From the IMG/VR virus record IMGVR_UViG_3300025174_000089: DNA of 28,502 nt. The stretch is one strand, 5' to 3'. Shown here one piece after another: positions 1,809-28,502 of the stretch. Numbering within the stretch: position 1 is the stretch's first letter; each line of letters starts with the position of its first letter. The DNA is from a virus. The position numbers were made by a program, and so were the translations under genes. The notes under the pieces were generated by a model, which searched no databases, was not told where the DNA came from, and saw nothing but the letters and a program-made list of their open reading frames with translations.

Positions 1809-3974
1809 TTACCAAATCACCTTTCTGTAGTCATACGCACCGATGTCTGGAGCCCCACCAGTCTTATGCCAATCAATCGTTTCTACAGAGTCGGGCCATG
1901 TTGACCCAGCGACCAATTGCTCTTGATATGAGCCGCCAAGATTCACACCAGCCTCAATGCACGGCGAAGAGGACGTGAGCGTGAAGTCACCACCGGCAGC
2001 GTTGGTGAAAGAAGGATCGGCTTCGACAGAATTGGTTGTCCCGCCGTAGGCAGTTTCCCATGCGTCGTAGGTATTATAGGCTGTCCCAAGCCATGTGACC
2101 AGACCGACAGCCTCTGCTCCAAATGAGTTATGATCAACGATGGTCCCAGTTGCACCACTGACGGCAATCTCATACCAATCGTTTCCAGTTGAGATATTGT
2201 TCTTGATGATGTTATCGGCTGTATTTGCCTCGCCACCGTCGTCAACGCTGATACCGGCCCCGCCAAGATTCCCATAGACGGTGTTGTTGTAGACCAAATT
2301 AGAATTCACCCGACGCCAGAACGCTATCCCACTAGTGCCGTTTCCATAAATCACATTCGAGAAAACCGAGGTTCCGGTTTGGTACTCGACAACAATCCCG
2401 CTACCGAGGTTCTCGTAAACCCGGTTTCGTGCAACAAGGCATGTACTTCCCTGCACCGTGTCCATGTAGATGCCGTGCTTATCATTCAGATAGACGGCGT
2501 TTTCTGTCACTGTGACATTGGGGATTTCTGACCCAGCCTCCGACTTGATGTACACACCAGCGTTAGTATTTCCGCTCTCTGCCGCGTTGTCGTGGATCGA
2601 ACACCGCTGCACTGTCACAGTGTCGGCGTCGTCCAAAATCGAAATCCCGTAGCTGTAATTGTACGAGATCACGGAATCTTGAATGACGAGGTTTGTGACA
2701 TCGGCAGTGTGATCGGCGTCGTATCCCTGAATGCCGGAGATTCCAGCAAACCGAGCCACACAAGAGGTCACGGTCGGACTGGCCGGGCCGTTATCAAGAT
2801 GGAGGCCATAGTAGAGTGGCGCTTGCAGATCCAACCCGGTCAGAGTGATGTAGTCCTTATCGTCAAGAGTGATGCAGGTATTTCGGGTTGGGATTTCCAT
2901 TGTGTAAGCCGCTGGATTGTCGCCTCCCGTGGGATAAACCCAGAGAAGGTTCCCAGCAGCGAGGTAGAACTGACCTTCGGTCAGGGACGCAATTGAAGTG
3001 GTATTGCGCGCGAGTGCGACACCGTTTTGCACAAGACTTTTCAGATCTGCGCTGACCGCCACCACCTTCTGATAGGCGTTCGTGTTTACCGGATCTGCTG
3101 TAGTAACCACCACGCTGTCAATGTCTATGTAATCCCCATTGGCAGGCAGCGCAGTAGCATAGGCACATCCGCCAACCTTATAGGTATCAATGACTTGGCC
3201 GCCCGTGTTGAGCGTGAAATACGAACCCTGACTCACGTCATCAAGCCAAAACTGAAATCCGCCGACCGAAGCATCCGCCAAAAAACGGAGTTTAACTTTG
3301 TACCAAGTGTTCATAGAAATCGTGCTGGAATTCTGAGCGGTCCAGGGACTTGAAATTTCACCCCTGAACTTATAGTCCCCCGCGCCATCCTGACGAATGC
3401 TGAGGATAGCCTTTGCCACACCAGAAAGTAGAAATTGGGCAATTCCTGCGTGGTCATATGTCGCGCTCAGACTAAAGCCTGTCTTTAATCTGATTCTGAA
3501 CTCGATCGTTGTATCAATCGAGGAAGCAACAAACGCAACCTGCGCGTTGCCAATCTGACTTGTCCCGTCATAGGTCGTGCGGAGCCCGTAGGTTCCCGCA
3601 TAGCTCGCGCTTGATGAAGCCATAACCGTATTAGATCCACCCACGTTTGTAGAATCCCACTTTGAGAGATCGCCCGTCTCAAAGTCGTCGGAATGGACGT
3701 ATCCCCGCCAGCCCGTGTAGGCAGGCCCAAGATCGGCTCCGGTGATGATCGAATCGGCCCCCGTCCCATACGCCCCAAATGTGATCGGACTTCCCTCAGA
3801 GCCCGACGACGGCACCGTCAACTGCTCGCGCCAAGTATCTGCCTTGTTAAAAAGGACAGAATCGCCCGCATTGAAACTTGATATGTTAACTTTGTCAACG
3901 GTATCCCAGGGAAGCAATTCCGAAAGACCAGAGTTGCCGTCATCTCCGTCATTGCTAACGTAATATGTACTCAT
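1809..3974 (-). CDS. Right-handed parallel beta-helix (pectin lyase-like) virion protein / spike with an inserted beta-sandwich
   Basis: N-terminus TYYVSNDGDDGNSG...PWDTVDKVN...GDSVLF; repeated N-x-[VI]-Y-x-N-x-x-x-GI beta-helix rungs; C-terminal DPSFTNAAGGDFTLTSSSPCIEAG...PDIGAY. Confidence 0.85.
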   Translation of the reverse strand: MSTYYVSNDGDDGNSGLSELLPWDTVDKVNISSFNAGDSVLFNKADTWREQLTVPSSGSEGSPITFGAYGTGADSIITGADLGPAYTGWRGYVHSDDFETGDLSKWDSTNVGGSNTVMASSSASYAGTYGLRTTYDGTSQIGNAQVAFVASSIDTTIEFRIRLKTGFSLSATYDHAGIAQFLLSGVAKAILSIRQDGAGDYKFRGEISSPWTAQNSSTISMNTWYKVKLRFLADASVGGFQFWLDDVSQGSYFTLNTGGQVIDTYKVGGCAYATALPANGDYIDIDSVVVTTADPVNTNAYQKVVAVSADLKSLVQNGVALARNTTSIASLTEGQFYLAAGNLLWVYPTGGDNPAAYTMEIPTRNTCITLDDKDYITLTGLDLQAPLYYGLHLDNGPASPTVTSCVARFAGISGIQGYDADHTADVTNLVIQDSVISYNYSYGISILDDADTVTVQRCSIHDNAAESGNTNAGVYIKSEAGSEIPNVTVTENAVYLNDKHGIYMDTVQGSTCLVARNRVYENLGSGIVVEYQTGTSVFSNVIYGNGTSGIAFWRRVNSNLVYNNTVYGNLGGAGISVDDGGEANTADNIIKNNISTGNDWYEIAVSGATGTIVDHNSFGAEAVGLVTWLGTAYNTYDAWETAYGGTTNSVEADPSFTNAAGGDFTLTSSSPCIEAGVNLGGSYQEQLVAGSTWPDSVETIDWHKTGGAPDIGAYDYRKVIW

Positions 3975-10686: not shown

Positions 10687-10877
10687 GTATTTGACACCAA
10701 GAATGAGACTACTTTCATATAAACTTCGTTCCACGTCAAATATCTAAGCTTCATTTCTGCTCCGGTGCTCGCGTGTGCATTTGCAATAGCAGTAGCGGCC
10801 TCCTCTCTAAAATGCATTATAAGATCTTGAAAACCATCATACTTAGCTAATTTCTTGATTTTCTCACGATTAACCAT
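10683..10877 (-). CDS. Small hypothetical protein after the portal (64 aa, MVNREKIKKL...)
   Basis: ATG at 10877 overlaps the end of the portal gene; typical small post-portal gene. Confidence 0.6.
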   Translation of the reverse strand: MVNREKIKKLAKYDGFQDLIMHFREEAATAIANAHASTGAEMKLRYLTWNEVYMKVVSFLVSNT

Positions 10878-12921
10878 TTTTCTTCTCCGTTTTCTTTGCA
10901 TTTGCAACAGCGATCTTTTCCTCAAGCTGCTGAATCTTCAAATCAATTTTAAGCTCCATATTCTCTTCCTGAAGTTGCTGATTCTCCTTCAGAAGCCTCT
11001 CCGCCTCCTTCGTAATTTCCTGAAGTTGCTGTGCAAGCTGCTGCGCCTGCTGCATTAATTCCTGCATCTGACTCTGAAGTTGCTGCACCATCTGCTGGTA
11101 GACCTGACCAACCTGCAACATTGCCTGAACCGGAGGATTAATCTGTTCTATGTCTTTCACCCTAAACTCCTTAAGAAGTCTAGTCAACATAGTAGAATAT
11201 GCATCAGCAGCACCGGCAGCGGCCATCCCAAGCGGCAATCCCTGAGATGCGGCCTCCATCCCCACCTTGAGCAAATCAAGGATCACCCTTTGAGAAGCCC
11301 CAACGCGATCCAACAGAGCAACCATCTCCTGTTTGCGGGTATTCTCGGAAAGCATTGCAGATGTTGCTTTTGGCTCAACCAACACCTTATCTTCAATAAG
11401 TCCAGGCGGAAACTGCACCAGGCCAGGCAAAAACTGCTGATCCACAAATTTCGTATATTCAACCTTATTTTGCCAGAACTGCCGATACCTAGAGAGCATC
11501 TGAATTGACAATTCGGAGATTGCCCCACGACAAATCTCAAGCTTTTCGAACAGCGGCTGCTTGCCCTCTTCGACCAGCAGGGTTTGCCCCGTCGCCGTGG
11601 GGCGATCAACCTGTTCCTGTCCTTGGTTATAGAGGTTGATGGACGCCAAAATGTTAATATGCCTCTCTAAGATTGCAGCCAACTCCAACAGATTATTTGG
11701 AGGTTCGCCCAATTTGAAAACTTCCGTACTTTCCCCCGGAAGACTATTCAGGAGAATAAAATCTCCCATGTTAAATTGCTGAGTTTTGAACAAATCTACG
11801 AGCTGGTGATCTGTAGTCCCTACAAACCAACCCTTTACAGCCAGCGTCCCTGAATCCAAGAGCATATCTATGATGGCCGTGTATGCCTTGTGCAGATGCT
11901 CAAGAATATAGCACAGGCTCATTCCGTCCATCGAATTAGGGCGCCGCTCCCACCACAAGATAACGAATGGCCGCTTATAATTATGATAATAGTTCTCAAT
12001 AGCGCGCAGAATCACCCCGCTGGTATAATCCATCGTGATGATCAACTCCTCTTCGATTCCATCACCATTGATGTCCGCTGCAGTATAGATCTCATGAATC
12101 TCAAAGCGATCCACGGAGGGCTTAAGCCCAAGAAGCTCTTCACGAGTTTTTGTAACTTCATCAATCTCAGCAGCCCGCTGCATCTTCTCAAATACCGGAT
12201 ACCACTCCTGATCACGGATTCTAGACTTGACCGTACTCTCATCTAGATAAACCTTGTGATCTAAGAGTTTTGCAGTATCCTTATCAACCGATGTCGAGGG
12301 ATAAATAAAATCTGACGGGGGGATGAGAACGGGGATCACACCCAGTTTTGAATCATATGTTCGTGGTTGTTCCTGTTGCTGGGTAGTCATCCCCGGAACT
12401 ATACTGCCATCAGGAAGCTGCTGCATCTGTCCAGTAGGAACCTGAGCTTCAACCCATTCCATAACGGTTTTTTGCTCATGAACCCAAGGAACCTTAAGAA
12501 TGCCCATGCCGTAGACGATTGCATTTTCGATCCATTCCATGAATAAGCGCTGGGTATCAAACTGATCAAACGCATAATCCATGAATTCTTCAACCTGCCG
12601 GGCAAAATCCTCGAATTCGGGCTTGCGAGGTTGAGCCACCATCACCTTATCTTGCTGAATGATTGGGTTTACAAGACGCGCCCTGACGGCCTGTACTACT
12701 TCTCTGGTAGTAGGAATGTCAAGCTGCGACTGCCATGAGGCAGGCTTGTCAATCCTCTCGACACGCCCCTCATTCTGCTTTAGCCAAATGGCACGCTTAT
12801 GGTCATATTCCTGCCGATCCTTTAGGGCATCCTTGATATCGTCTTTGAGTGTCTTTGCAAAAAGTTCACGCTGAGACTCACTTTGGAATTGGACATGCTT
12901 TACCTCAACTACGTTTGCCAT
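10870..12921 (-). CDS. Portal protein (P22-like, long C-terminal coiled coil)
   Basis: 683 aa; IENAIVYGMGILKV, DFIYP, IHEIY, RPFVILWWERRPNSMDGMS, VDRPTATG motifs; Gln-rich C-terminal helix; lies after TerL. Confidence 0.88.
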   Translation of the reverse strand: MANVVEVKHVQFQSESQRELFAKTLKDDIKDALKDRQEYDHKRAIWLKQNEGRVERIDKPASWQSQLDIPTTREVVQAVRARLVNPIIQQDKVMVAQPRKPEFEDFARQVEEFMDYAFDQFDTQRLFMEWIENAIVYGMGILKVPWVHEQKTVMEWVEAQVPTGQMQQLPDGSIVPGMTTQQQEQPRTYDSKLGVIPVLIPPSDFIYPSTSVDKDTAKLLDHKVYLDESTVKSRIRDQEWYPVFEKMQRAAEIDEVTKTREELLGLKPSVDRFEIHEIYTAADINGDGIEEELIITMDYTSGVILRAIENYYHNYKRPFVILWWERRPNSMDGMSLCYILEHLHKAYTAIIDMLLDSGTLAVKGWFVGTTDHQLVDLFKTQQFNMGDFILLNSLPGESTEVFKLGEPPNNLLELAAILERHINILASINLYNQGQEQVDRPTATGQTLLVEEGKQPLFEKLEICRGAISELSIQMLSRYRQFWQNKVEYTKFVDQQFLPGLVQFPPGLIEDKVLVEPKATSAMLSENTRKQEMVALLDRVGASQRVILDLLKVGMEAASQGLPLGMAAAGAADAYSTMLTRLLKEFRVKDIEQINPPVQAMLQVGQVYQQMVQQLQSQMQELMQQAQQLAQQLQEITKEAERLLKENQQLQEENMELKIDLKIQQLEEKIAVANAKKTEKKNG

Positions 12922-13183: not shown

Positions 13184-13542
13184 TTCCTTCCTCCAAGCAA
13201 TGCAATTGTAATCCTATTTACAGCACATTCCAAGTCATTCGCGTTTTGCCAGGTTGTAGAAGCAAGTATTAGATGAACAAGTTCATGTACAACCGTATAT
13301 TCCTCATTATACATTTCTACTGTCCCGAGCATATTTTGGGGACGATCACATTTAGGAACAACCCTCATAGAAGCTACCAATTTAGGTAAAAACCAATTTA
13401 GATCTCCGGCAATGAAATTTTCTTTTCCCGGGTCGTTATTTATCTCATTCCATCTCACAAATTGAGACTCAATACTCCATTCTGGCAAATTTAACTTTTT
13501 CTGCCATTTTGAGACAAGCCCTCTCAGGTCACGAATCCTCAC
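13180..13542 (-). CDS. Putative HExxH zinc metallopeptidase-like protein (120 aa)
   Basis: YTVVHELVHLIL motif preceded by the WQKKLNLPEWSI pattern; coupled to the TerL stop. Confidence 0.6.
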   Translation of the reverse strand: MRIRDLRGLVSKWQKKLNLPEWSIESQFVRWNEINNDPGKENFIAGDLNWFLPKLVASMRVVPKCDRPQNMLGTVEMYNEEYTVVHELVHLILASTTWQNANDLECAVNRITIALLGGRK

Positions 13543-15116
13543 GTTTCCCCCTGGAGTCCATAAGAGGCGACTCTCTGCCCACCGCCCCTGTCAGTCCAAT
13601 CCTCAATATCATCGTCATCAGCATACTCCGGCTTCGCCTGACCGTGTTTACCCTGCCAAAATGGCACATGCATGGAGGCCGAGTCAATCAAGTCATCATG
13701 CTTGAGACCAGTAGAGCCATCTGGTCTCGGCTGAAACCCAAGCATCTGCTTGATAAGCGGACCCTGATCACGAGTGAAGTAAATCTGCCCATTCATCACA
13801 TATGGCTGCAGGCCCTCAATCCGCGTTGATTTGTTTGACTTCCCAGCTCCCTGCTTCGGTTTTAGTGGATCTATCCAGAAAAAGTAATTCTGCTGACGCA
13901 TGAACTCTTCCGTAAATGATTTCAATGCAAGTTGATAGCCAGCATGTTCGATACCGGTCTTATGAGGCTTCCACTTCTTGTGGAGTTCCATAATTTTTAT
14001 TGCCTGAAGGCGCGGATCAATCCTACCGTGTGACAACCCAAGTAAAAACCCACGAGCAGTGACACGATCCCAACCGAATATAGTAACGGCAAATTCATCA
14101 GATTCAGCAGTACGCCCAAGAGAAGGATCAATGCACATAGTTCGAAACAGATTCCCCACGTTATATTGAACAGCGTCAGCCACGAGGAGGTGCCCGTATT
14201 CGACCCAATTATAGTATTTGATCCCGTCCGGTCGAAATCGCAAGAGCCCTTCAACCACGGGTTTGTTGAGGATTTGGTAGGAGAAGAATATGTCTTCCAT
14301 GTCTTCAAGGTATCCGGCGATGGTTTCGTGCCCAAGTCCTTCTGGAAACAGTAGATCCCCGTCGTCCCCGGAGAAACCCAGTCGTCGAGCAGGATCGTCG
14401 AGGTATGGCCCGATGATCCAGGTTTCATGTCCCCCCCGGTCAATGATGTACTGATACAAGTCTTGCATGGCCCAGCGGGTTCCCACCACGATACGGATAC
14501 CCTCGTTTCGTCTAACGAAGAGGGGGGAAGAGTTCTTAAACCAGCGTATAACCCTTTCCATGTCGGTTTCCGAAAATGCCGTAGTTTCATCAACCACGTC
14601 ATCAAATATGTGGACATCATAGTGTCCTCCAGTGATGACAGAATCAACTCCTCGGGCCGAGATGGTGGGCTCGGGATAAATCCCATGGCGCGGGAGTTCG
14701 ATGCCCTTCTCGCTGAAGCGGTCGCCGCTTCCCGGCATTAGCTCTGGGAAGTAATGCGAAAAGGCCCATGCAGTGATGGTCTTCTTGAGGTCGTTCATGA
14801 CCTCTTTTACCTTTTCAGCGGACGCCTGGACGATAAGGACTCGAACCTCGGGGTTATTTATGACTAGCCAGAGACTCATGGCTATAGTGAGGAGGGAGGT
14901 CTTATAGACGACCCGAGGAGCCAAAATCATCATTTTACGGTTACCAAAGCGCAGATTGCGCTCTACCCATGCCGCCATTCTTCCGTGAAAGTCTGGCGTC
15001 ATGTCCTTAAAACCGCAAAGTGTTCTAGCTGCGAAAAAGAGTGAGTTTCGACAACTCTCACGGATGAATTCGTGATCTAAGCCACAAATGGCGCAGATAT
15101 TAAGATCTTCGGCTAT
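13539..15116 (-). CDS. terL: Terminase large subunit; probable start at ATA 15116 (first ATG at 15002)
   Basis: Walker A-like ILAPRVVYKTS, Walker B HYDVHIFDDVVDE, GTRW coupling motif, nuclease acidic motifs CIDPS, SDEFA and HDDLID; frame stays open 38 codons upstream of the ATG. Confidence 0.9.
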   Translation of the reverse strand: MAEDLNICAICGLDHEFIRESCRNSLFFAARTLCGFKDMTPDFHGRMAAWVERNLRFGNRKMMILAPRVVYKTSLLTIAMSLWLVINNPEVRVLIVQASAEKVKEVMNDLKKTITAWAFSHYFPELMPGSGDRFSEKGIELPRHGIYPEPTISARGVDSVITGGHYDVHIFDDVVDETTAFSETDMERVIRWFKNSSPLFVRRNEGIRIVVGTRWAMQDLYQYIIDRGGHETWIIGPYLDDPARRLGFSGDDGDLLFPEGLGHETIAGYLEDMEDIFFSYQILNKPVVEGLLRFRPDGIKYYNWVEYGHLLVADAVQYNVGNLFRTMCIDPSLGRTAESDEFAVTIFGWDRVTARGFLLGLSHGRIDPRLQAIKIMELHKKWKPHKTGIEHAGYQLALKSFTEEFMRQQNYFFWIDPLKPKQGAGKSNKSTRIEGLQPYVMNGQIYFTRDQGPLIKQMLGFQPRPDGSTGLKHDDLIDSASMHVPFWQGKHGQAKPEYADDDDIEDWTDRGGGQRVASYGLQGET

Positions 15117-15485: not shown

Positions 15486-15682
15486 CAGATCGGTGACACG
15501 TCTAATTTGCCGTTATCACGCACTTCAATATCTACAATATCATTCTCAGTACCAATTGTTATCTTAATCGTTCTCGGGGAACGAATTGTAGTGATATGCG
15601 CTACGGCAAGATTGTCGTCCCTGTCCGCAAAATAAATCTTCACCTGGGTGTCATGCATGTCCCATTCCTCATTTCCGCCCAA
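15485..15682 (-). CDS. Hypothetical protein (~57-65 aa)
   Basis: Tiled ORF; start may be the second Met (MHDTQ) after GAGGA. Confidence 0.55.
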   Translation of the reverse strand: MGGNEEWDMHDTQVKIYFADRDDNLAVAHITTIRSPRTIKITIGTENDIVDIEVRDNGKLDVSPI

Positions 15683-16083
15683 TATATAGATTTATGCATG
15701 GATTGATGTTCTTTAAGAGGCATCAATAAAAGATTTTCAATCCTATTATCTAAACCATCACCATTAATATGGTGAATGCTTTCTTTTCTCAATAATTTTC
15801 TACCTAATTTTATCTCAATAATGTGCCTATGTTCAAGAACCCATATATTTGGGTCTGCAATTTTTAAAAGCCAGTATTTATGTCCCTTACAATTCCATAT
15901 ATGACGAGATCCAACCAATAATCTTCTCGCTATTTTTGGTAATCCCTTACCACATCTATGTGGGCAATCTGGAGCATAAAGTCTAAGTGTAAGTCCTTCA
16001 TATGTTTCTTTATCTTTTCTTATCAATCTCCCACAACCGCACTTACAAAATCTCTCTTTCGTAACAATCACTCCTCTCTTCAT
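15640..16083 (-). mobile_element. Free-standing HNH endonuclease (HNH_3-like)
   Basis: FCKCGCGRLI N-terminus; WVLEHRHII...GRKL...SIHHINGDGLDNRIENL motif; visibly AT-rich. Confidence 0.85.
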
Positions 16084-16280
16084 AACTTCTCCTTTGCTAT
16101 TGGATCTGTATCCATATCCCCAATATCGTCCAGAGGATTCTCTGGATCATCCTCATCATCTCCGGGATCTAGTTTTGTCCAAATCTCATCATGCAATCCC
16201 CATTTATCGGCCCATTCACAACCAAGATCAAACATAGTTAAACCAATATTGGTCAAGAACTTAATCAGAAGGAGTCTCAT
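16080..16280 (-). CDS. Small acidic hypothetical protein (66 aa)
   Basis: GAGGTGG RBS; hydrophobic N-terminus, Asp-rich C-terminus; ATGA overlap with the HNH gene. Confidence 0.6.
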   Translation of the reverse strand: MRLLLIKFLTNIGLTMFDLGCEWADKWGLHDEIWTKLDPGDDEDDPENPLDDIGDMDTDPIAKEKL

Positions 16281-17004
16281 CTACCACCTCAGCTTGTTCA
16301 ATGATAATGTGCCCAGCATCAAGTTCTGTATACGTTTTCACCTCCGAAGGTTCCGAAAGTCTCTTAATGCGTTCCATGATGCCGATGGTGTCCTTGATAA
16401 CCTGTAGGGCCTCCGGATTTGGCGTCTGAGCTGCGATCTTGGCCTGGGTGGCATCCTTACCCATGTCGAAGCGATCCATCGCGTCCTGGGCAGCCTTGGC
16501 GCGCACGCCGCCCGGTTGCATCGGGTCATCCATGAGTTCTTCCATCACCAGGGGCGCTCTCAATGCAGCCCTTTGATACAGGGCCAACATTCGACTCCAG
16601 ACGACAGGGCGCCGCACACCAGCGTCCTTTACTGCCTCATCAGCGACCTTTTGTAATGCTCTACGGTATTCCCGGTCATGCCTACCAATCAAATGCGCTA
16701 TCGTAGTCGGCTTCTTCCCTAGTTTTTCTGCAATCTCAGCATAACTAAGTCCCTCTTCTATCTGCATCTTAACAATCTTTTCGATGTTCTCAAGAGTGGC
16801 CCTTCGTGGTCCTGTTACGGAAACCAATTTTGGTTGTTTAGATGCGTTTTTTAAAGCCCACTTTTCTTTATCAGTGAGCGATTCTCCATCTCTTTTCTTT
16901 GCATAGGCTCTACTTACGACCTGTTTAAAGGTCTCTTTCTTCTCATCGTCAGGATTAACATCGCCTTTCGGATTCTGCCATTGAATGAGTTTATCTTTAC
17001 TCAT
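16261..17004 (-). CDS. HTH protein, candidate terminase small subunit
   Basis: Start MSKDKL at 17004; HTH GLSYAEIAEKLGKKPTTIAHLI followed by helices (VMEELMDD...RAKAAQDAMDRF) typical of TerS oligomerisation regions; upstream of TerL. Confidence 0.55.
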   Translation of the reverse strand: MSKDKLIQWQNPKGDVNPDDEKKETFKQVVSRAYAKKRDGESLTDKEKWALKNASKQPKLVSVTGPRRATLENIEKIVKMQIEEGLSYAEIAEKLGKKPTTIAHLIGRHDREYRRALQKVADEAVKDAGVRRPVVWSRMLALYQRAALRAPLVMEELMDDPMQPGGVRAKAAQDAMDRFDMGKDATQAKIAAQTPNPEALQVIKDTIGIMERIKRLSEPSEVKTYTELDAGHIIIEQAEVVDETPSD

Positions 17005-17254
17005 TTTTTCCCTGTCTATATTCAGACAATAGAGAGTCAACCTTAGTAGTTTCAATAACTGACGCAAAATAAGTAATTTGATTCAATTGCTCGCGGTATG
17101 GCTTACGATCGAGCAAATTAAGCCTAATCTTCAGTGCCCTACGGTCCGAATCCCATTCAGCGTCTATAACTTGAAATCTCTCAGAAAAATAGGGCTCAAG
17201 CCACTCATGAAGTTTCTCTACAGAGAAGCGAATACCATAAATTGAGTCGCTCAT
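16997..17254 (-). CDS. Hypothetical protein (85 aa)
   Basis: Tiled ORF with overlaps at both ends. Confidence 0.65.
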   Translation of the reverse strand: MSDSIYGIRFSVEKLHEWLEPYFSERFQVIDAEWDSDRRALKIRLNLLDRKPYREQLNQITYFASVIETTKVDSLLSEYRQGKNE

Positions 17255-24124: not shown

Positions 24125-26392
24125 ATGAATAGAATAGAAAGCGGTTGGGCTACTGTATTGGGATACGAAAAGGTATCTCAAATATCTTCACAAAAGGCGC
24201 GCGGTATTGCACTAGTTTCGCAGCTTGGGTATTTTTCCGTGCTAAACACCGTTATTATTTCTTCACAAGAAGCACGGAAATTGGACTCATCTATAATGAA
24301 TAAAGAATTTAGTGAGTCAGTAATAGATCGTTCCTTTACTCTTGACTTACCAATCTTACTAAGAACGTGCCCAGTCACGCCAAGGCACGGGATTCTCGGA
24401 AACAAAAAAATTGTGCTCAAGAGGGTTTCGGAATTACAGGGAGCCTGTTCTGAACTTGCATATTCCATGCTTGAGTATGGCGAATCCGAAGGGGACATTG
24501 TAATACAACCATTTGTTAACGCAGCAATGAATTTGGTTTGGACTAATGGGCATGTGGTAATTGGTCCTGATTTTGATGGTGCAACTGCAGGAAAATTTCC
24601 ATCATTTGGACTTAACGTTCTTTGGCCCAAGTGGTTAGAAAAAGGTATCACAGAGCACATTAAAGGTGATAAACACCATGAGCTTGAATTTGTGATAGAT
24701 AAATCCACAAATGTATTCTGCACTCAAATTCGAGAATCAACAAAACACAAGGATAAGGGACTCGTAGTTTTGCCGAATTCAATTCCAGGATTTGTTCCTG
24801 ATGCAACAAGTCCAAGACTTGGTAAAGAATACTTTGTTATAAAAGTTAAGGGAACGGATCTTGAAATTCTTGAGAAGTTAAAAATAGAAAACGTGCTAGT
24901 CATGCACCAAGCGGGAAATCTCCTTTCCCATGCGTCGGCACATTGTAGGCAAAGGGGATGGGCATATATCTCTAGGATTCTAAATCCAAAGGATATTGAG
25001 AATTGTTATATATGTGAACCCGCACCCGGCAGTGTAATGTTTCTAGAAAAACCAGCAATCGGGGTTAATGTTTCTATTGAAGATTACAAAGCTCAGTTTC
25101 TCGAAGGGTTGCAATTTGTCCTTAAAAATAAGGTTGCGCCGCCGGATCATTGGAGGGCGTTTACTTTATCATTTGCTTTTCATCATTTTAGTACAGGGCA
25201 GAGTCTAAGCCCGGAGATTGCATACCTCGCCGGGATATTTGCGGGCGTCATGTTAAAGTCTGCATTCGCAATTATACTTGGTGAGATGAGGCATTTTGAA
25301 AATCTAGTAGCAGAGACGGATGGATCTGTTTCCGAGTGCTGGGAGATATTTTTGGGTGCCATTTCGGATTCGCTCCACTTGGAAAAGGAAACTCCTAGGA
25401 ATCAGATTTATAAGAGAGTTTTTTCCACAGATTGCAGTAAGTATCTTGGGCGTATTTTGGCGTTGATGAGGGCGTGTCGTATACTATATAATAAGATTCA
25501 ATGGGGAAGCGGATATGGCGGTGATGCATGGGGGAGAGTTACGAGAGCCGCCGTGCGTTCTGTAATTGCTTTGAACTTAGGGAACATGAAGTTTATTTTG
25601 AGAGAGATTAATCTGCTTACGAATGCAGCACATAACTGTGGGTGGGCGTTTAACAAATTTACCGGCCAACAGGATTTGCTGTACTTTATGGGAGATTTCC
25701 TAGGTAATCCACATTGGCCGGTCGGTCTTTCTATGGCCATGAGCGTGCTCAGGAAAGGGATACCAACTTTAGATAAGGACAACTCCACAATTTTTGTTAA
25801 AGAGAACGTTAGGGAATCATTGATTGAGATAGCAAAATTACTTTCAAAAGCATCAGCCATTAAGAAAGTGGGTTTCAAAAAGAAGGCCCCCGATGTAGAT
25901 GTATCCAAGGGATTTACTGCTGCAAAGAAACCAAGTTGTTATATAGCCGTATTTGATAAGCCTTATTCATTGACTGGAGATGAAGTGCCAGAATTTGCTT
26001 TGAGTGGCGAAGCAAAGCTTACGTCACTAGCAAAAGAAAAGGATTACGAGGCGGAGCAGTTAGACAGTAATGAAAAACAAGAGTTTTGTGGCACTGTTTT
26101 CGATTTACAATCGTGTGAAATGTTTCATTCTATGATAACTAATCTTCTTAATGAACCGGATGGCACAGTGGTAACCTTTAATCCAAATATTGCAGAACAA
26201 ATGGCTGATGATGAAAATTGTGGTATTCTACATTCTATAAAAAATAGTCTCAGTCTAGAACTGCCAGGAAATCAAGAGATTGCGTACTTAGAAATGTCAT
26301 GGGCTTATGAACTTCTTTGTGACTCCTATAAGATTGGAGCTAAAAATATGAAGGAACTGTCAAAGGGAGAAAATGATGGCAAAGAAAAATAA
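24125..26392 (+). CDS. PPDK/PEP-synthase-like phosphotransferase: ATP-grasp domain + phospho-His swivel domain + unknown C-terminal domain (755 aa)
   Basis: LLRTCP..PRHG, IVIQPFV, HELEFVI...FCTQIR resemble the ATP-grasp of the PPDK N-domain; AGNLLSHASAHCRQRG matches the GGxTSHAAxxxRxxG swivel motif (His269); no recognisable PEP-binding TIM barrel. Confidence 0.7.
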   Translation: MNRIESGWATVLGYEKVSQISSQKARGIALVSQLGYFSVLNTVIISSQEARKLDSSIMNKEFSESVIDRSFTLDLPILLRTCPVTPRHGILGNKKIVLKRVSELQGACSELAYSMLEYGESEGDIVIQPFVNAAMNLVWTNGHVVIGPDFDGATAGKFPSFGLNVLWPKWLEKGITEHIKGDKHHELEFVIDKSTNVFCTQIRESTKHKDKGLVVLPNSIPGFVPDATSPRLGKEYFVIKVKGTDLEILEKLKIENVLVMHQAGNLLSHASAHCRQRGWAYISRILNPKDIENCYICEPAPGSVMFLEKPAIGVNVSIEDYKAQFLEGLQFVLKNKVAPPDHWRAFTLSFAFHHFSTGQSLSPEIAYLAGIFAGVMLKSAFAIILGEMRHFENLVAETDGSVSECWEIFLGAISDSLHLEKETPRNQIYKRVFSTDCSKYLGRILALMRACRILYNKIQWGSGYGGDAWGRVTRAAVRSVIALNLGNMKFILREINLLTNAAHNCGWAFNKFTGQQDLLYFMGDFLGNPHWPVGLSMAMSVLRKGIPTLDKDNSTIFVKENVRESLIEIAKLLSKASAIKKVGFKKKAPDVDVSKGFTAAKKPSCYIAVFDKPYSLTGDEVPEFALSGEAKLTSLAKEKDYEAEQLDSNEKQEFCGTVFDLQSCEMFHSMITNLLNEPDGTVVTFNPNIAEQMADDENCGILHSIKNSLSLELPGNQEIAYLEMSWAYELLCDSYKIGAKNMKELSKGENDGKEK

Positions 26393-27212
26393 CGATACAA
26401 AAACAACACCAACTGAATGCCACTGGGGCAACTTAGAGGTATTCAGTACAGAATACTCTGTATACTATGGCGGAGGTAAAACAAGAGGAGCAAAAACCGG
26501 AGAGGTAGACGTGATTATAGATCTTGCGCCAAGAACATATGGTACCGGAACTGGATATGCAACAACCTCCCCCCTTTACAGTAAATTGCTGACCCTAAAG
26601 GGTGTTGATGAATTTCTACAGCGTGTTGTTGATAAGGAAAAGGATTACAAGAAAGATCAAATAACATTTGAGTTGGATTGGGACGACCTGGGAGTGCCGC
26701 CATTTACGAAGAAATTCTTTGAGGAGTTCGCGGCAGCCCTTGAAGATGGCTCGCGAGCATTCTTAGAATCTCGCAAAACAAAAAGAAAGATTCTTGTAAT
26801 GTGCGCTGGCGGACATGGAAGAACCGGCACGATGATTGCTATTTTAGCTTTGATAAATGGAGCATTGGCTGGTGATAAAAAAGTTCTTGAGAACATTAGG
26901 GATATGTATTGCCCTAACTGTGTGGAGGCGTTTTGTCAGGCCGAGCTGATTGGTCTTTTTTGTAAAGAGTCTTTCCAATTTACCCTACCGCCCAAAAAGG
27001 CAGCATTAATTGACGCGCATTATGGTTTTGAAGACAGTTCTACTGGCGAGTACAGGTTTCCGTCTAAGAAAGGGGGCATTAAGGATGAGCCTGCAGCAAA
27101 AAAAGCGATAAGTTGTGGAAAGGAGGATACCTTTGTTGGGGTAACGATGAATGACCCGGAATTTGACTATGAGTATGACTGTCAGGATTGTAAGTGGCAT
27201 AGGAGGAAGTAA
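26373..27212 (+). CDS. Cys-based (PTP/dual-specificity-like) phosphatase (279 aa)
   Basis: ILVMCAGGHGRTGT is a CX5R P-loop (Cys144); WDDLGVP acid loop upstream; VEAFCQ resembles the Q-loop region. Confidence 0.85.
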   Translation: MMAKKNNDTKTTPTECHWGNLEVFSTEYSVYYGGGKTRGAKTGEVDVIIDLAPRTYGTGTGYATTSPLYSKLLTLKGVDEFLQRVVDKEKDYKKDQITFELDWDDLGVPPFTKKFFEEFAAALEDGSRAFLESRKTKRKILVMCAGGHGRTGTMIAILALINGALAGDKKVLENIRDMYCPNCVEAFCQAELIGLFCKESFQFTLPPKKAALIDAHYGFEDSSTGEYRFPSKKGGIKDEPAAKKAISCGKEDTFVGVTMNDPEFDYEYDCQDCKWHRRK

Positions 27213-27801: not shown

Positions 27802-27904
27802 GGATATGGGCGCTGCGGCCCAGCCCAAGGAACCAGCCAGAGGGAACAGAAGGGTAGGGAATGCATCCGTCTGGTCAGCGCCCATCAATTCTTTGGAGAA
27901 AACT

Positions 27905-28183
27905 ATGGCGCATTTCTATGGAACGTTAAGAGGAAAAGGTAAAAACGCAGTCACAAAATGTGGCACAAAGAATAGCGGTTTAACCATAACGGCACAGGGC
28001 TGCAAGGGACAGATAGAAGTGAAGATTTATTACGATAAGCTTTGTGACGAAGATATGTATTCTGTATCTCTTGCCCCAGCCAATTTCGGTCCAGGTAAAA
28101 CAACCCTGTTGGCAGTTGGGGTATTGAATATGGCCTATGTGCCGATTTATTCTGGTTATACTGAGGGAGAAAAAGATGGTTAA
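27905..28183 (+). CDS. Conserved phage hypothetical protein (92 aa, MAHFYGTLRG...CGTKNSGL)
   Basis: GGAG RBS before the ATG at 27905; N-terminus matches a recurrent phage family pattern as recalled. Confidence 0.7.
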   Translation: MAHFYGTLRGKGKNAVTKCGTKNSGLTITAQGCKGQIEVKIYYDKLCDEDMYSVSLAPANFGPGKTTLLAVGVLNMAYVPIYSGYTEGEKDG

Positions 28184-28502
28184 GATTTCTTTAACTGCCC
28201 TTTCGACCTCTCCAGAGGATGTTATAGCGGAAATAAAACATATTTACGATTCGTCTCCGAAAGAAGCCAAGGAAGATATTGACTCAGGACAAGTGATTCT
28301 TGATGTAACGGAAATCACCGGACTGTCAGCAGCAATTGCTGTTGCATGTTTAAATGGAATCAGCGGTATTATGCCAATGGTTTTAGAGGATTGGTCTGCT
28401 GAGGGATATGAGCACAAACAAACAGTTGATCTACACGAGATCAGACAAGAGTTTTACCTGAAGTATAGGTCTGTAACTGGAGGAAAAAAAGATGGAAATC
28501 AG
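28176..28502 (+). CDS. Csx15-like small protein, 3' end cut by the window (>=109 aa), absent from the ORF track
   Basis: Own translation: MVKISLTALSTSPEDVIAEIKHIYDSSPKEAKEDIDSGQVILDVTEITGLSAAIAVACLNGISGIMPMVLEDWSAEGYEHKQTVDLHEIRQEFYLKYRSVTGGKKDGNQ; GAGGGAG RBS; a GGAGG...ATG at 28492 suggests it ends just past the edge. The ORF is solid; the family call is tentative. Confidence 0.5.
   Translation, partial: MVKISLTALSTSPEDVIAEIKHIYDSSPKEAKEDIDSGQVILDVTEITGLSAAIAVACLNGISGIMPMVLEDWSAEGYEHKQTVDLHEIRQEFYLKYRSVTGGKKDGNQ

Follow-up and report, generated by a model that had tools for sequence, protein, structure and literature searches.

What does the last, incomplete gene of a phage genome fragment encode, and could its product act against CRISPR (clustered regularly interspaced short palindromic repeats) immunity? 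The fragment, IMG/VR record IMGVR_UViG_3300025174_000089, was analysed over its full length of 28,502 nucleotides (nt; hereafter the window). The open reading frame (ORF) in question starts on the + strand at the ATG at 28176 and stays open to the window end at 28502, over 109 codons (label '3open' in the ORF list). An initial annotation of the DNA had proposed a captured, shortened relative of Csx15, a protein of type III CRISPR loci, acting as a ring nuclease or a sponge for cyclic oligoadenylate (cOA). Our analysis shows that the ORF is a real, selected, phage-borne gene. Its product is probably a remote homologue of the Csx15/CARF clade and, as the best though still tentative explanation, it would bind a nucleotide second messenger without cutting it. 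The gene and its start signal are as follows.

28176..28502, + strand: Csx15-like ORF, codons 1-109 of 111 (from the open frame, the copy in contig L001, the family alignment and the ratio of non-synonymous to synonymous substitution rates, dN/dS)
28163..28169, + strand: ribosome-binding site GAGGGAG, 6 nt 5' of the ATG (read from the sequence)

The complete gene could be recovered from L001, a metagenome contig of 6,335 nt (JGI 3300009285) that is about 97-98% identical to the window, with near identity across the ORF and an identical phosphatase gene upstream. The full-length gene (L001:2320-2655) encodes 111 amino acids (aa), and its last two codons (KE) and stop fall outside the window; the truncation thus reflects the window edge rather than biology. 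The frame without a stop in the window, as initially described, is therefore the 5' part of a normal gene, and the strings that had been picked out in it (SPKE, QVILDV, ITGLSAAIAVACLNGISGIMPMV and VDLHEIRQ) are all in frame. An alternative start at 28137, corresponding to a 124-aa form (P0001), was dropped because all relatives of the protein begin at a Met aligned with 28176 and the ribosome-binding site precedes the 28176 codon. As this ATG overlaps the TAA (28181-28183) of the upstream phrog_5927 gene by 8 nt, the two genes are probably translationally coupled. Pairwise Nei-Gojobori dN/dS values within the family range from 0.08 to 0.15, indicating purifying selection, and the frame is kept in relatives down to 35% identity, so that the gene is far more than a chance ORF.

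The relatives of this protein are limited to one small phage lineage. Seven clusters in total came out of an exhaustive HMMER search (1.84 billion cluster representatives), three word-index searches (5.8 billion proteins) and a metagenome scan; cluster P0006 was discarded as a spurious repeat protein. The family is divided into three clades, the first with the window protein, its L001 copy, P0002 and P0003, the second with P0004, P0007 and the proteins of contigs L007 and L008, and the third with P0005. The most distant relatives are 35-38% identical to the window protein, lengths range from 95 to 116 aa, and thirteen alignment columns are kept, with E19, G38, A55, A57, C58, G61, G64, P67, V69, D85, R90 and R98 (L001 numbering) among the invariant ones.

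Evidence for a relationship with Csx15 comes from two libraries of hidden Markov models (HMMs). The NCBIfam Csx15 model NF040560 (125 positions, curated cut-off of 35 bits) was the top or only NCBIfam match for five family members, with E values from 1.3e-5 to 2.4e-3. These include the following matches.

P0007: residues 9-69 against NF040560 positions 34-93, E 1.3e-5, 25.4 bits
P0002: residues 12-90 against positions 39-120, E 2.4e-5, 24.5 bits
P0004: residues 13-68 against positions 39-92, E 9.2e-4, 19.4 bits
L001 copy of the window protein: residues 22-92 against positions 47-120, E 2.4e-3, 18.1 bits

P0003 had no NCBIfam match, and P0005 had none to NF040560, just a faint one to another CARF family. 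Among the PADLOC CRISPR models, which were built separately from those of NCBIfam, CARF_2M matched seven of the nine members (best E 2.5e-4) and Csx15 five of the nine (best E 3.1e-4), while two further CARF models matched one member each. Csx15 or CARF models were the only recurring matches in the two libraries, and none was found with neighbouring proteins, five of which were scanned against NCBIfam and three against PADLOC. Pfam and PHROGs offered no family for the protein. PADLOC CARF_2M, a CARF domain with two transmembrane helices, probably corresponds to the TM-Csx15 fusions of a recent preprint (bioRxiv 10.64898/2026.10.26.761840); in one alignment, the match lies within the C-terminal soluble portion of the 200-position model, at 132-176. 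The phage protein, at half the length of CARF_2M, is devoid of transmembrane segments. Taken as sequence evidence, these matches make remote homology to the Csx15/CARF clade probable.

Several other leads were followed and rejected. Weak rows for TFB4, PTHB1 and BORCS7 among the PDB sequences were judged to be noise, tblastn against plasmids and phages returned noise only, and ribosomal L7/L12 leads from a feature search of the ESM Atlas (all sub-0.85) were discarded. Six plasmids, including Herpetosiphon pHAU01, Synechocystis pSYSA and Thermus pTT27, gave no NF040560 match.

Structure prediction was less informative. Two AlphaFold2 models, one of the L001 sequence (6 aligned rows, predicted local distance difference test score, pLDDT, of 69.8) and one of P0007 (9 aligned rows, pLDDT 80.4), both present a strand, two helices, a strand, a helix, a strand, a short bridge and a C-terminal helix. 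Foldseek found nothing in the PDB at E<=0.001 for either model. The fold lists contained no Csx15 entry; the library behind them runs to releases of 8 April 2026, so that the Csx15 structures 9TET and 9TEU may be absent from it. The predicted fold is compatible with a CARF-like protein and decides nothing. The initial assignment to Csx15 thus holds in part: it is borne out by repeated Csx15/CARF profile matches, albeit all below the cut-off, and not by the two models, neither of which has a clear Csx15/CARF structural match.

Which parts of Csx15 would the phage protein have kept? Csx15 was shown in 2026 to be a ring nuclease or a sponge (PMC13148439; bioRxiv 10.64898/2026.10.26.761840). It has a CARF-type fold of five strands (strand 3 being lost) with an extended strand 4-5 hairpin, forms a homodimer, and binds cyclic tetra-adenylate (cA4) with ligand-induced head-to-tail filaments (PMC13148439), in which the stacked dimers sandwich cA4. 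The 'head' is the motif-I loop after strand 1, with a His in HaCsx15 and CsCsx15 (H8) and in CliCsx15 (H13), and S9/H11 in PfCsx15. The 'tail' combines a central His (PfCsx15 H82, CliCsx15 H90) with three arginines of the last helix (PMC13148439; bioRxiv 10.64898/2026.10.26.761840). In the HaCsx15 triad R118/R122/R125, R118 serves binding and R125 catalysis (bioRxiv 10.64898/2026.10.26.761840). Three regions of the phage protein can be compared with this scheme, on residue correspondences read from the profile match coordinates.

28329..28382, + strand: core, residues 52-69, AAIAVACLNGISGIMPMV, the best conserved part of the family (A55, A57, C58, G61, G64, P67 and V69 invariant; from invariant columns and HMM matches)
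28407..28409, + strand: Tyr78, possible counterpart of the adenine-stacking aromatic residue (PfCsx15 F106, CliCsx15 Y113; from its spacing to the D-L-x-x-I-R motif)
28431..28469, + strand: C-terminal helix, D-L-H-E-I-R...Y-R, with invariant D85, R90 (28443-28445) and R98 (28467-28469)

The family matches NF040560 positions 34-120 only, and residues 1-8 fall at about positions 26-33; the first 25 or so positions of Csx15, which hold strand 1, motif I and the beginning of helix 1, thus appear to be without a counterpart. In the family alignment, strand 1 is not followed by any conserved His or Ser. The initial annotation had already noted that the N-terminal Csx15 motif was missing, in agreement with individual matches that begin at positions 34-47 and with the lack of any His among residues 1-21 of the window protein. 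The core corresponds to the Csx15 helix, the L-H-G turn and the following strand, and Asn60 (28353-28355) occupies the place of the central His. This position is Asn in the window protein, its L001 copy and P0003, Gln in P0005, and His in P0002, P0004, P0007 and the L007 and L008 proteins. Tyr78 is not conserved across the family, and its loop is deleted in P0003. In the last helix, R90 maps to about profile position 118, the first arginine of the tail-face triad according to the match coordinates; the +4 and +7 positions are Tyr94 and Tyr97, and the invariant R98 stands at +8, outside the aligned range. As judged from these correspondences, the phage protein would have the tail face in part and lack the head face altogether.

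The same blend of likeness and loss emerges from a comparison with the characterized ring nucleases CliCsx15, HaCsx15 and CsCsx15 (NF040560; PDB 9TEU). Like them, the phage protein is small (they have about 110-130 aa) and stands alone, and it shares the core of central helix, L-(H)-G turn and G-x-(F/M)-P-x-(I/V) strand as well as the D/N-L-x-x-(I/V)-R start of the C-terminal helix. Unlike them, it lacks about 25 N-terminal residues, has Asn for the L-H-G His and would have Tyr in place of two of the three tail arginines. The genetic setting differs as well: about 80% of Csx15 genomes show a link to cas10/type III CRISPR, whereas the present gene is phage-encoded and lies beside a recombinase gene with no cas10.

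The explanation that we tentatively prefer is that the gene encodes a 111-aa acidic alpha/beta protein that derives, very remotely and with a shortened N-terminus, from the Csx15 branch within the CARF/SAVED sensor superfamily. Such a protein would retain the helix-turn-strand unit at its centre and, of the face through which Csx15 touches the cA4 phosphates, a single invariant arginine; it would have lost the first strand with the motif-I loop, and with it the face carrying the catalytic histidine. It would then not cut cyclic oligoadenylates by the Csx15 mechanism, which favours non-catalytic binding as its activity. Early in infection it might capture an oligonucleotide second messenger, cyclic or linear, and so serve as a sponge or decoy for type III CRISPR signalling or signalling of the CBASS (cyclic-oligonucleotide-based anti-phage signalling system) type. 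Fold, dimerisation, ligand binding and any anti-defence effect are predicted properties of this protein, and an anti-CRISPR role is possible. Confidence in the function is low, and the homology itself, read from sequence, is weakly supported.

A precedent for a non-enzymatic Csx15 exists in PfCsx15, an orphan of Pseudomonas fluorescens (PDB 9TET) that acts as a cA4 sponge and lies, like the phage gene, away from CRISPR; by analogy, binding rather than cutting may be proposed for the phage protein as well. PfCsx15, however, keeps S9/H11, H82 and R116/R120/R123, and its motif-I His, H11, is required for cA4 binding and for filaments (PMC13148439), whereas the phage protein lacks the H11 region. 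This weighs against a cA4-binding role, and so do several other observations. Chi et al. argue that sponging suits type III systems poorly, given how much cOA these release. The NF040560 scores of 18-25 bits remain below the 35 bits used for membership. In the reverse test, the family profile found no Csx15 chain among PDB sequences at E<=10, nor did single members. Finally, the gene is fixed beside a recombinase gene in the sampled contigs.

Virus-encoded Csx15 has been put forward before. In October 2026, viral Csx15 (vCsx15) was proposed as AcrIII-3, with putative activity, from Skoll, a Lokiarchaeota virus (URC17498), and more than 20 metagenomic viral sequences (bioRxiv 10.64898/2026.10.26.761840). 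Both vCsx15 and the present protein are virus-encoded, Csx15-like and putative counters to type III CRISPR signalling. By their description they are set apart: vCsx15 was found by BLAST/PSI-BLAST and models closely onto HaCsx15, whereas the present protein is shortened and has sub-threshold profile matches. The present protein stands out by how far it is reduced (about 100 residues, the head region missing, scores under the threshold of the family) and by its strict association with a recombination module. Functional analogues of the proposed role can be found in Acb2, Tad1/Tad2 and AcrIII-1, small early phage proteins that neutralise nucleotide second messengers; their folds are unrelated to that of the present protein, and their activity is demonstrated where ours is predicted. 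Should cOA binding prove true, some 100 residues would suffice for a Csx15 fold stripped of the catalytic face, the CARF-like decoys of phages would extend to far greater divergence than BLAST-level searches show, and it could be tested whether sponging is indeed ineffective against type III CRISPR, as has been claimed.

A more speculative idea, to which we attach only a slim chance, is that a head-less Csx15 with a tail face only could be a chain terminator or a half-site decoy. Holding cA4, or host proteins loaded with it, from one side, it would cap the head-to-tail filaments that activate SAVED/CARF effectors such as CalpL, SAVED-CHAT, Cat1 or Cash; alternatively, it could couple the sensing of a nucleotide alarm to phage Rad52-type recombination. 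Filament capping as an anti-CRISPR mechanism has not yet been described.

The main and serious rival to a Csx15-derived decoy is suggested by the neighbourhood of the gene, whose relevant features are listed below.

27906..28183, + strand: upstream small gene, phrog_5927, a phrog whose function is not known (from the L001 gene call and the alignment, MAHFYG start)
28492..28502, + strand (L001:2636-2833): start of a 65-aa ORF in the +1 frame, overlapping the 3' end of the Csx15-like gene (from L001)
L001:2823-6161, with equivalents in L002-L008: module of Rad52/Rad22-family gene, Cas4-like exonuclease gene, small gene and DnaB gene

In the window and L001, the genes 5' of the Csx15-like gene encode, in order, a 755-aa protein, the phosphatase, a 168-aa protein and the small phrog_5927 protein; those 3' of it in L001 encode the 65-aa ORF product, a Rad52/Rad22-family annealing protein, a Cas4-like exonuclease, a 100-aa protein and DnaB. 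The order in every contig with a family member is phosphatase, a protein of about 175 aa, one of about 94 aa, the Csx15-like protein, the Rad52-type protein, an exonuclease of about 307 aa, an 83-aa protein and DnaB. The exonuclease is a PD-(D/E)XK enzyme with a C-terminal Cys cluster (phrog_1706, with a sub-threshold match to TIGR00372); this 'Cas4' neighbour is a recombination nuclease, whose presence does not point to a CRISPR system. Neither cas10 nor a CRISPR array was seen in the window, a phage arm with terminase, portal and early genes; the initial view of a shortened, phage-encoded protein in the early arm with no CRISPR system nearby agrees with this and with the shorter N-terminus.

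The product could accordingly be an accessory of the recombination/replication module, such as a mediator, a regulator or a Gam/Abc-like inhibitor of a host exonuclease, working with the Rad52-type protein and the Cas4-like exonuclease. The resemblance to Csx15/CARF would then just reflect an old shared alpha/beta fold. We find this rather unlikely on balance, although much in the gene order speaks for it. All contigs have the gene 5' of the Rad52/Rad22-family gene, after which come the exonuclease, the 83-aa gene and DnaB. The stop of the Csx15-like gene overlaps the Rad52-type start by 4 nt in L008 and in the ERZ1426817 contig and is separated from it by a 2-nt gap in L002-L005 and L007, suggesting coupled translation. 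Moreover, the protein is small and acidic, as are several phage anti-nuclease or mediator proteins. Between L001 and L008 it is 38% identical and its neighbours 41-66%, a parallel that vertical inheritance within a module would predict. Since this divergence tracks that of the neighbours and synteny is kept, the gene is deeply diverged and inherited vertically with its module, and the recent acquisition implied by the word 'captured' in the initial annotation has to be abandoned.

Other observations speak against such an accessory. No profile or fold match links the protein to recombination mediators, single-stranded DNA-binding proteins (SSB), Gam or Abc families. Coupling to the recombinase is not obligatory, as the extra 65-aa gene separates the two in the window lineage; this ORF, which has no family match, is found between the Csx15-like and Rad52-type genes in the window/L001 lineage only and not in L002-L008. 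The upstream phosphatase, 168/175-aa and ~94-aa genes are equally syntenic, so that a small and closely related sample may explain the adjacency. The repeated Csx15/CARF matches would also have to be a coincidence. If a partnership with the Rad52-type protein were nevertheless true, the gene would represent a new accessory of a common phage recombination module.

It is unlikely, in our opinion, that the Csx15 resemblance is altogether spurious and that the gene encodes an unrelated small alpha/beta module, for instance a MinC-N/STAS-like interaction domain aimed at a host protein such as the division machinery. Scores below the cut-off, the empty reverse test and the indecisive fold would fit this explanation, and the restriction of recurring matches to Csx15 and CARF models fits it poorly.

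We regard as quite unlikely a CARF-like sensor that is not a decoy, binding a host or phage-made nucleotide signal and informing replication, recombination or timing of the lysis-lysogeny type. This possibility draws on the same homology evidence as the decoy, and Csx15 domains do sense cA4 when fused to effectors, as with Schlafen in Cash (PMC13462974). The gene is conserved as a core early gene beside enzymes, and the pair formed by the 755-aa protein and the CX5R phosphatase hints at phospho-signalling in the same operon. The phage protein has, however, no fused or obviously coupled effector, and we know of no CARF sensor of 100 aa that stands alone and acts in trans on the proteins of a phage.

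Least likely of all is an active, AcrIII-3-like ring nuclease cleaving cA4, as the initial annotation had envisaged: although some members of the related Csx15 family are ring nucleases and five of the nine relatives have the L-H-G His, this activity is highly improbable because the catalytic motif-I His (H8 or H13 in the characterized enzymes) has no counterpart in profile matches that begin at position 34 or later, the second His is Asn60 in the window protein, and one triad Arg is aligned, the equivalent of catalytic R125 not being so.

The phage itself can be described in part. The window belongs to a tailed phage, with clear large terminase (TerL; 13539-15002, - strand) and portal (10870-12921, - strand) genes; from about 20.7 kb on, early genes are read rightwards. 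Viral contigs and GenBank phages gave no match in exact DNA or blastn searches; related loci were found in neither the viral_contigs nor the genome_contigs set, and the metagenome_contigs set added only L006-L008. A TerL query had no match in genome_contigs and thus gave no host lead. Near-identical DNA is present in groundwater and soil metagenomes of nine studies. In L006 (Ga0209324_10000497, 27,562 nt), the gene lies at 296-628, 295 nt from the contig end, and its protein is 100% identical to the L001 copy. As L006 continues 27 kb past the end of the window, the whole phage genome probably measures 55 kb or more.

Upstream of the Csx15-like gene, the phosphatase has 279 aa and is of the CX5R protein tyrosine phosphatase (PTP)/dual-specificity type, with PF00102 and PTP-SAK matches (E about 7e-7). 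The 755-aa gene before it (window 24125-27212, + strand, together with the phosphatase gene) belongs to no Pfam or PHROG family and overlaps the phosphatase start by 20 nt. The pair is kept in relatives, as proteins of 772 and 299 aa in L002 and with PTP-SAK in L005. The spacer between the 168-aa and phrog_5927 genes (window 27810-27900 versus L001:1915-2040) is locally hypervariable, with many indels and substitutions; a long ORF call from 27806 is probably wrong, and a gene start at 27906 (MAHFYG) is more likely.

Among the minus-strand genes, an HNH_3 endonuclease gene (15640-16083, - strand) lies just upstream of the large terminase gene, in a typical cos/HNH packaging arrangement, and is followed by a gene for a 268-aa protein resembling helix-turn-helix or sigma-70 region-4 proteins (16261-17067, - strand). 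A 721-aa protein (1809-3974, - strand) has right-handed beta-helix and NosD regions together with polysaccharide-lyase-like ones and probably serves as a tail-spike depolymerase, a hint that the host is capsulated or produces extracellular polysaccharide.
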